Below, piece after piece: positions 46,308 through 46,699 of a stretch of DNA of 64,000 nt (its first letter is position 1; each line of letters starts with the position of its first letter). Origin of the DNA: Mustelus asterias (Eukaryota); NCBI RefSeq assembly GCF_964213995.1, contig NC_135830.1, forward strand, positions 10,664,001-10,728,000, read 5' to 3'. Under the pieces are notes generated by a model. The model saw only the letters and a list, made by a program, of their open reading frames with translations. It did not search any database and was not told the DNA's origin. Position numbers and translations under genes: made by a program.

Positions 46308-46699
46308 TCAATGACAGGAATTAACGGTGTCCATCAGTGCAAGAGAAATGTTCACAAAACTGGGTTTCCCACTGGATTTATCAACCGTTCTGTTGATGAT
46401 CTTCAAGGGGATAGCTTCATGTCCCACCACACAGGAGTAAGAAGCGCCGCTGGCCCACTCCAACGCTGCAATGGATAACAGACTGTACATGAAGAAGGAG
46501 CTATTGCCGTTCTCCGCCATCACCTTCGTGTTACTGTAGTTCCCGGGATTCACCGGCTTGTCTTTGAAGGTCCACTTGACGAAGATCTCTCGGGGGGAGA
46601 AACCTCTCACTAAGCAGGAGAGGGAGACTATTTTTTGAGCGGAGACTTCTTCTGCCAAGGGCATGAGGACAGAAACGGACGGTTCCCGCGGATTTGGAT
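46308..46699 (-). CDS. IGHM: IgM Cmu4 exon plus secretory tailpiece
   Basis: cag|[43 protein letters not shown]...[46 protein letters not shown] sequon and penultimate Cys. Confidence 0.97.

Follow-up and report, generated by a model that had tools for sequence, protein, structure and literature searches.

An IgM heavy-chain cluster of Mustelus asterias that lacks the Cmu4 membrane splice donor, probably through unselected mutation

The window, by which we mean the whole stretch of 64,000 nucleotides analysed here (G000:C71:10,664,001-10,728,000, in a genome of 3.7 Gb), carries on its minus strand the constant region of an immunoglobulin cluster which, judged by its exon order and domains, is an elasmobranch IgM heavy-chain cluster. 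Exons Cmu1 to Cmu4 each score as a C1-set domain (4/4), the top matches of the Cmu4 exon with its tailpiece are Ig mu, and the closest named proteins over that exon are the IgM of Triakis scyllium (88%) and of nurse shark (82-83%). The exons, and the hexamers read directly from the sequence as likely poly(A) signals, are listed below; in this text a slash within a donor sequence marks the splice point.

50410..50709, minus strand: Cmu1 exon, open, with a C1-set match
49888..50202, minus strand: Cmu2 exon, open, carrying a Phe>Leu change private to the window copy (50005)
48901..49209, minus strand: Cmu3 exon, open, with a C1-set match and the phase-1 donor AAG/GTGAGT
46308..46702, minus strand: Cmu4 and secretory tailpiece exon, open, with a penultimate Cys and an NIS sequon
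46266..46280, minus strand: AATAAA in two copies, which probably serve as the poly(A) signal of the secreted form
38487..38614, minus strand: TM1 exon, open, with a phase-1 acceptor
38348..38356, minus strand: TM2 exon (I-K-stop), open
37924..37929, minus strand: AATAAA, likely the poly(A) signal of the membrane form

All six constant and transmembrane exons of the window copy are open, their AG/GT borders are canonical except at the membrane donor inside Cmu4, and the donors of the constant exons are in phase 1 throughout. The V and J segments, which lie beyond the window end, are open as well, so that neither a stop nor a frameshift is found in the V, J, C and TM exons of this copy. The cluster belongs to a subfamily of five copies, which is without two cysteines that are frequent elsewhere (Cmu2 SPAC>SPAW in 49888-50202 and the N-terminal Cys>Asn of Cmu3 in 48901-49209, both minus strand); their absence may alter inter-chain bonding, if the chain is expressed. 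About 2.3 kb upstream of Cmu1, at roughly 52900-53500 on the minus strand, a G-rich degenerate repeat adjoins long CA/TCAC-type simple repeats. On the 3' side of the IgM cluster the window holds seven tRNA-like genes (ARAGORN: Arg, Val x3, Ala, Leu, Lys) between positions 468 and 31592, and a TCR-like V fragment on the plus strand (about 3040-3310) that is 5'-truncated and broken by stops and a frameshift (...LSDSAVYYC...). A motif resembling this fragment recurs about 42 kb past the window end, and linkage of IgH with TCR alpha/delta, which the fragment matches, is described in an excerpt of PMC12227049.

Two adjoining codons of the Cmu4 exon concern the membrane splice.

46368..46370, minus strand: Gly codon GGG, in which the membrane donor G/GT is lost (+1 at 46369, +2 at 46368)
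46371..46373, minus strand: Ser codon AGT, forming a weak in-phase donor at -3, CCA/GTGGGA (GT at 46372-46371)

Within the open exon of Cmu4 and tailpiece, positions 46376-46362 of the minus strand read TCC AGT GGG AAA CCC (S-S-G-K-P). The +2 base of the donor, at 46368, has changed from T to G on the minus strand, and the Gly codon stays silent in passing from GGT to GGG. An earlier note on this DNA had stated that the internal Cmu4 donor is without its GT and that TM1 and TM2 are still open; in the assembly the Gly codon is indeed GGG, with G at 46368, and the transmembrane exons are open with AG/GT sites (38614-38487 and 38356-38348). It had also placed the normal membrane donor, G/GTAAA, in the Gly-Lys codons before the tailpiece. 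In P0009, the membrane chain of horn shark (...KSS-DSSDHIW), the TM part is joined with an Asp directly after S-S, a junction that fits a G/GT donor in the Gly codon; excerpts of PMC3141427 state that cartilaginous fish use a cryptic Cmu4 donor for membrane IgM. A literature search returned no shark IgM cluster lacking the Cmu4 donor in the titles and abstract openings that it covered, a weak negative because the primary shark IgM papers lie mostly outside that coverage.

A genome search gave 475 candidates for comparison, 150 of which were scored, so that the copy counts given here are lower bounds. The 110 loci that we took represent 111 of the 112 top places; 38 weak C1-set matches and one third copy of non-IgM type were set aside. 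Among the 110 loci, 105 aligned across the donor and five were tails of other isotypes. Many of the Cmu4 copies are identical pairs on small contigs, and the count of 105 therefore probably includes unmerged haplotypes. The earlier note had proposed a comparison of this Gly codon across the IgM clusters: GT is kept in 98 of the 105 aligned copies and is replaced by AT in five, by TT in one and by GG solely in the window copy. A GT at the upstream -3 position is present in 3/105. These two figures, GG in 1/105 and the -3 GT in 3/105, rule out GGG with an upstream GT as the normal shark configuration.

The other six copies that have lost the donor (L109, L110, L112-L114 and L104; AT or TT) all carry an in-frame stop in the Cmu4 exon (6/6), which leaves the window copy as the sole GT-loser with a stop-free Cmu4 exon among the 105 aligned. 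The exon is broken in 6/7 GT-losers versus 16/98 GT-keepers (Fisher p = 0.0003), and the same contrast on 70 distinct sequences gives 3/4 versus 10/66 (p = 0.019). Unbroken Cmu4 exons have the Gly codon GGT in 82 of 83 cases, a figure that suggests selection for the membrane splice in nearly every shark IgM cluster that is intact. Inside the subfamily GG occurs in one of the five copies and an inverted twin of the window copy has GT; GG is thus no subfamily trait.

This twin is an inverted near-copy on the same contig, either a real duplicate or a second haplotype left unmerged (C71, about 4.70-5.04 Mb vs 10.67-11.02 Mb). The two are 99.89% identical over 80,011 columns, with 73 substitutions, and the match extends over about 300 kb in sampled stretches (99.90% over 17 kb, 99.96% over 9 kb, and 97.9-99.6% at the far end). 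The twin keeps GGT at the donor, and its J carries a TGG>TAG stop. Five coding differences separate the pair. The window copy has the donor change and Cmu2 F>L, and the twin has the J stop together with Cmu2 A>T and Cmu3 E>D. Each of the five alters a residue, creates a stop or removes the donor, and the background rate would predict 1.5-1.7 differences in about 1,900 coding bases, a length that is partly estimated (P = 0.02-0.03). Whether window copy and twin are paralogs or alleles, each has a separate disabling change.

Leader, V, D and J are located beyond the window, 0.4-1.9 kb from its end (C71:10,728,4xx-10,729,8xx), in the same orientation as the constant exons, and consist of one V, one D and one J, unjoined at V and at J. 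The leader and V are open. However, the V heptamer at C71:10,729,274-10,729,280 is CCCAGCG, which is not of CAC type, and the same 23-signal, CCCAGCG-23-ACAAGAACA, is found in 4/4 subfamily loci that include V (L131-L134), the fifth contig ending before V. At the other V loci among the best 30 of 150 matches examined, CAC is present in 25/26, the remaining one being germline-joined. [quoted passage not shown] We looked for a substitute V signal, and the sole other 23-type signal found is 163 nt downstream of the V cysteine and comes after an in-frame stop; since a join there would be non-productive, we reject rescue by an alternative V signal.

The single D, in place of two D segments that are both free (12/22 and 12/12), has a 5' signal of D1 type and a 3' signal of D2 type. 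The sequence on either side of it aligns with the V-D1 interval and the D2-J interval of clusters that have two Ds; from these signals and alignments, D1 and D2 appear to be fused in the germline. The J nonamer is the degenerate ACATTAACA, versus ACAATAACC in most paralogs. Rearrangement is reported to be confined within clusters (PMC2191167 and PMC2435157, in excerpt). The broken V signal, the apparently fused D and the degenerate J nonamer, taken with this confinement, lead us to predict that productive VDJ is absent, and the window cluster probably cannot build a productive VDJ, or a receptor, of its own. Elsewhere in the genome, L157, L158 and L159 (C306, C91) are one-D or V-D-joined clusters (single 12/12 D; V-DD-J, VD(D)-J), layouts that amount to several partial germline joins.

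Two insertions mark the introns of the window copy and its twin.

47930..48098, minus strand: decoy, a copied Cmu4 acceptor followed by ~90 nt from the start of the exon and closed by two in-frame TGA codons
57417..62035, minus strand: LINE-type retroelement of about 4.6 kb (endonuclease and RT frame) in the J-Cmu1 intron

The decoy is a templated insertion at 47934-48098 that stands in the place of 9 bases and precedes the real Cmu4 acceptor by 1.3 kb; its TGA TGA falls on the first Cys codon. Of the 30 loci tested, 2 have the decoy, the window copy and the twin. The joint 47933-48099 is seen in contigs without the decoy, and the decoy junctions occur as loose ends in the public-run contigs X1, X2 and X4, so that the decoy is not peculiar to the assembly. 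Splicing of Cmu3 to the decoy would shorten the secreted mRNA too; the nearest downstream GT is weak. The LINE is young, has frames of 314 aa and of an 840-aa endonuclease/RT, and is present in both twins and absent from the C88 and C971 copies.

If the base itself were wrong, there would be no donor loss to explain. In that case GG would be an assembly consensus error and the true base T, as in the twin; its occurrence in a single copy of 105 is what such an error would give, and contigs from four public runs (at most three samples, of one study) all have the GT base at 46368. At nearly all of the listed sites where the twins and the C88 copy differ, however, these contigs also lack the base of the twins, and as contigs show presence, not absence, and collapse subfamily variants, we reject their GT as proof of error. 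The 73 substitutions between the twins are spread over 80 kb and comprise 41 transitions and 32 transversions, and the 29 that can be polarised split 14 vs 15, as real divergence or heterozygosity would. GG is moreover a substitution and not a homopolymer indel, and indels predominate among long-read errors. We hold an error to be very unlikely and, from these patterns in the sequence, regard GG at 46368 as probably genuine. With a genuine GG the membrane splice might still have been preserved by a donor that slid 3 nt, AGC>AGT having given a tandem GTGGTA in the ancestor of the twins before T>G removed the old GT. The earlier note had pointed to a weak in-phase alternative, A/GTGGGA, 3 nt upstream, and weak and in phase it is: it matches the donor consensus at 4/9 positions in the window copy and at 3/9 in the twin, vs 5/9 for the normal shark donor, the T>G change supplying its +5 G. 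Tandem GYNGYN donors exist and their usage is hard to predict, according to excerpts of PMC1779574, in which 0/9 unconfirmed tandem donors proved to be used. The -3 site lacks G at -1 and A at +3/+4, its rough, unconstrained U1 duplex energy (register not fixed) is -3.8 vs -5.5 kcal/mol for the normal donor, and a slid donor would matter only with VDJ supplied. Low-level use of the -3 donor is possible on its sequence, but a slid donor as the explanation of the change is highly improbable; it would turn the junction K-S-S-D-F-T into K-S-N-F-T, with a new sequon. Hardly credible, finally, is a functional three-domain receptor made from the window cluster by splicing Cmu3 straight to TM1, as teleosts do (excerpt of PMC3141427). 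The Cmu3 donor is strong and in phase 1, so that this part of the route suggested in the earlier note stands, but a phase-1 GT donor is common to all 28 of the 28 Cmu3 exons extracted and is therefore nothing special in the window copy. Typical shark membrane IgM has four Cmu domains in the excerpted review PMC4279169, and the cluster probably does not supply a VDJ of its own. Two interpretations offered in the earlier note thereby probably fall away: a secretion-biased cluster presumes productive VDJ, while the V heptamer is without CAC, the D apparently fused and the J nonamer degenerate, and a shortened three-domain receptor presumes a VDJ that is probably impossible with this dead V signal, the decoy moreover preceding Cmu4. 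The third interpretation of the note, a cluster used after switching, survives as a minority reading, and even under it GG would be private to one copy and missing from the 99.89% identical twin.

The constant exons could point to another role for the subfamily. When the twins are compared with the remaining three copies of the subfamily, whose coding sequences are mutually identical, these exons show 4.5-5.5 nonsynonymous and 4.5-5.5 synonymous differences (dN/dS 0.24-0.36). The flank (non-coding) divergence of 1.3-1.4% predicts 14-15 nonsynonymous differences and fewer are observed (P = 0.002-0.004), with the proviso that the counts are small and that nonsynonymous sites may mutate more slowly than the repeat-rich flanks, so that the expectation is probably inflated. 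Once the changes are polarised on the other clusters, 1 nonsynonymous and 3 synonymous ones fall in the C88-type lineage, 3 and 3 in that of the window copy (one of them being the donor), and 4 and 2 in that of the twin, which has the J stop in addition; one synonymous site has a mixed outgroup. The dN/dS of the subfamily against the main IgM group is 0.35-0.47, similar to the 0.32-0.36 within that group; in a stem-lineage test of relaxed selection the ratios run from 0.35 to 2.1 by exon, but they are unpolarised, biased by an 80% consensus filter, and count multi-base codons as upper bounds. Conserved constant exons behind a dead V signal are what a switch acceptor would look like, that is, a constant region to which a foreign VDJ would be joined by AID-driven recombination in the J-C intron; the window copy, having lost the membrane donor, would then yield mainly secreted IgM. 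The low nonsynonymous divergence in spite of a V signal that is broken in both groups, the changes in the C88-type lineage and the intact tailpiece and poly(A) hexamers of the window copy all agree with this, and inter-cluster switching is reported in nurse shark (review PMC4279169, in excerpt). It sits badly with a GG that is private to one of the five copies and not shared by the twin, with a twin lineage that gained a decoy acceptor with its stop, a LINE and 3-4 amino-acid changes, and with the danger that the decoy would pose to the secreted mRNA as well. Given the small counts and the inflated expectation, the switch acceptor remains a minority reading, which we consider unlikely. The conservation of the constant exons bears on the subfamily more than on the GG base, and a switch-only constant region is more plausible for the subfamily taken together. 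A subfamily that has given up V(D)J joining of its own and has its constant exons selected as a switch-only isotype, with the window copy as its secretion-only, switch-reached member, is about as unlikely.

The reading that we prefer, with a probability of about 0.7, is that the point mutation GGT>GGG is unselected and struck a cluster which, by prediction, cannot assemble a variable region of its own. A V heptamer without CAC would preclude a RAG cut at V, and thus a productive VDJ and a B-cell receptor; without a receptor, selection on the membrane donor would be lifted, and the donor would have mutated after the twin arose. Transcripts of the window cluster, if there are any, would either be sterile or be spliced to TM1 with low efficiency. 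Since the same copy has the broken V signal, its loss of the donor is likely to be harmless decay and not a new secretion-only antibody. Decay is favoured by the retention of GT in 98/105 copies, by the excess of broken Cmu4 exons among the GT-losers, by the broken V heptamer in 4/4 subfamily loci, by the separate lesion of the twin (the J stop), by the non-silent nature of 5/5 coding differences between the twins, and by the decoy and the LINE, which the twins alone carry among those compared. Against it stand the open exons, with sites that are canonical except for the donor, a Cmu4 exon that in the window copy, unlike the other GT-losers, has no stop, and constant exons that are under-diverged despite the shared broken V heptamer.

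Set beside known systems, the window cluster is most likely a damaged, partly germline-joined shark IgM cluster, of a kind already known. It shares with the elasmobranch IgM cluster (V-D1-D2-J-Cmu1-4-SEC-TM1-TM2) the exon order, four C1-set domains, a tailpiece, two TM exons and 23/12 signals, and differs from it in the lost donor, the V heptamer without CAC, the one, apparently fused, D, the decoy acceptor and the LINE in the J-C intron. Its disabled V heptamer, the effect of which we infer from the excerpt of PMC2875030, and its disabled Cmu4 donor are features of a pseudogene type. Germline-joined segments are known in sharks (PMC5192425), and no rearrangement was observed for nurse shark IgM groups 6-8 (PMC5192425, PMC2435157), both according to excerpts. 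As in those germline-joined or pseudogene IgM clusters, so far as the excerpts describe them, segments are joined in the germline; here, however, the join is D1-D2, V and J are free and the constant exons are open. Nurse shark IgM1gj (P0008; PMC4279169, in excerpt) is likewise an IgM cluster with an unusual variable region, but it is fully VDJ-joined and without Cmu2, whereas the window cluster retains Cmu2 and has a free V and a free J, which rules out that the two are the same. In teleost membrane IgM, as excerpted from PMC3141427, the internal Cmu4 donor is likewise unavailable for membrane splicing; there, however, Cmu3-TM1 is the regular pathway of a working gene, whereas the change in the window copy is private to 1/105 copies. 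As it stands, this is one further damaged cluster among about a hundred, and matters little. Nurse shark inter-cluster switching would allow a constant region to be used without its own VDJ, although the excerpts of PMC4279169 describe no cluster dedicated to that role. Were the subfamily switch-only, it would resemble a downstream mammalian C gene, and would make it testable whether inter-cluster switching in sharks has dedicated targets, as tetrapod class switching does.
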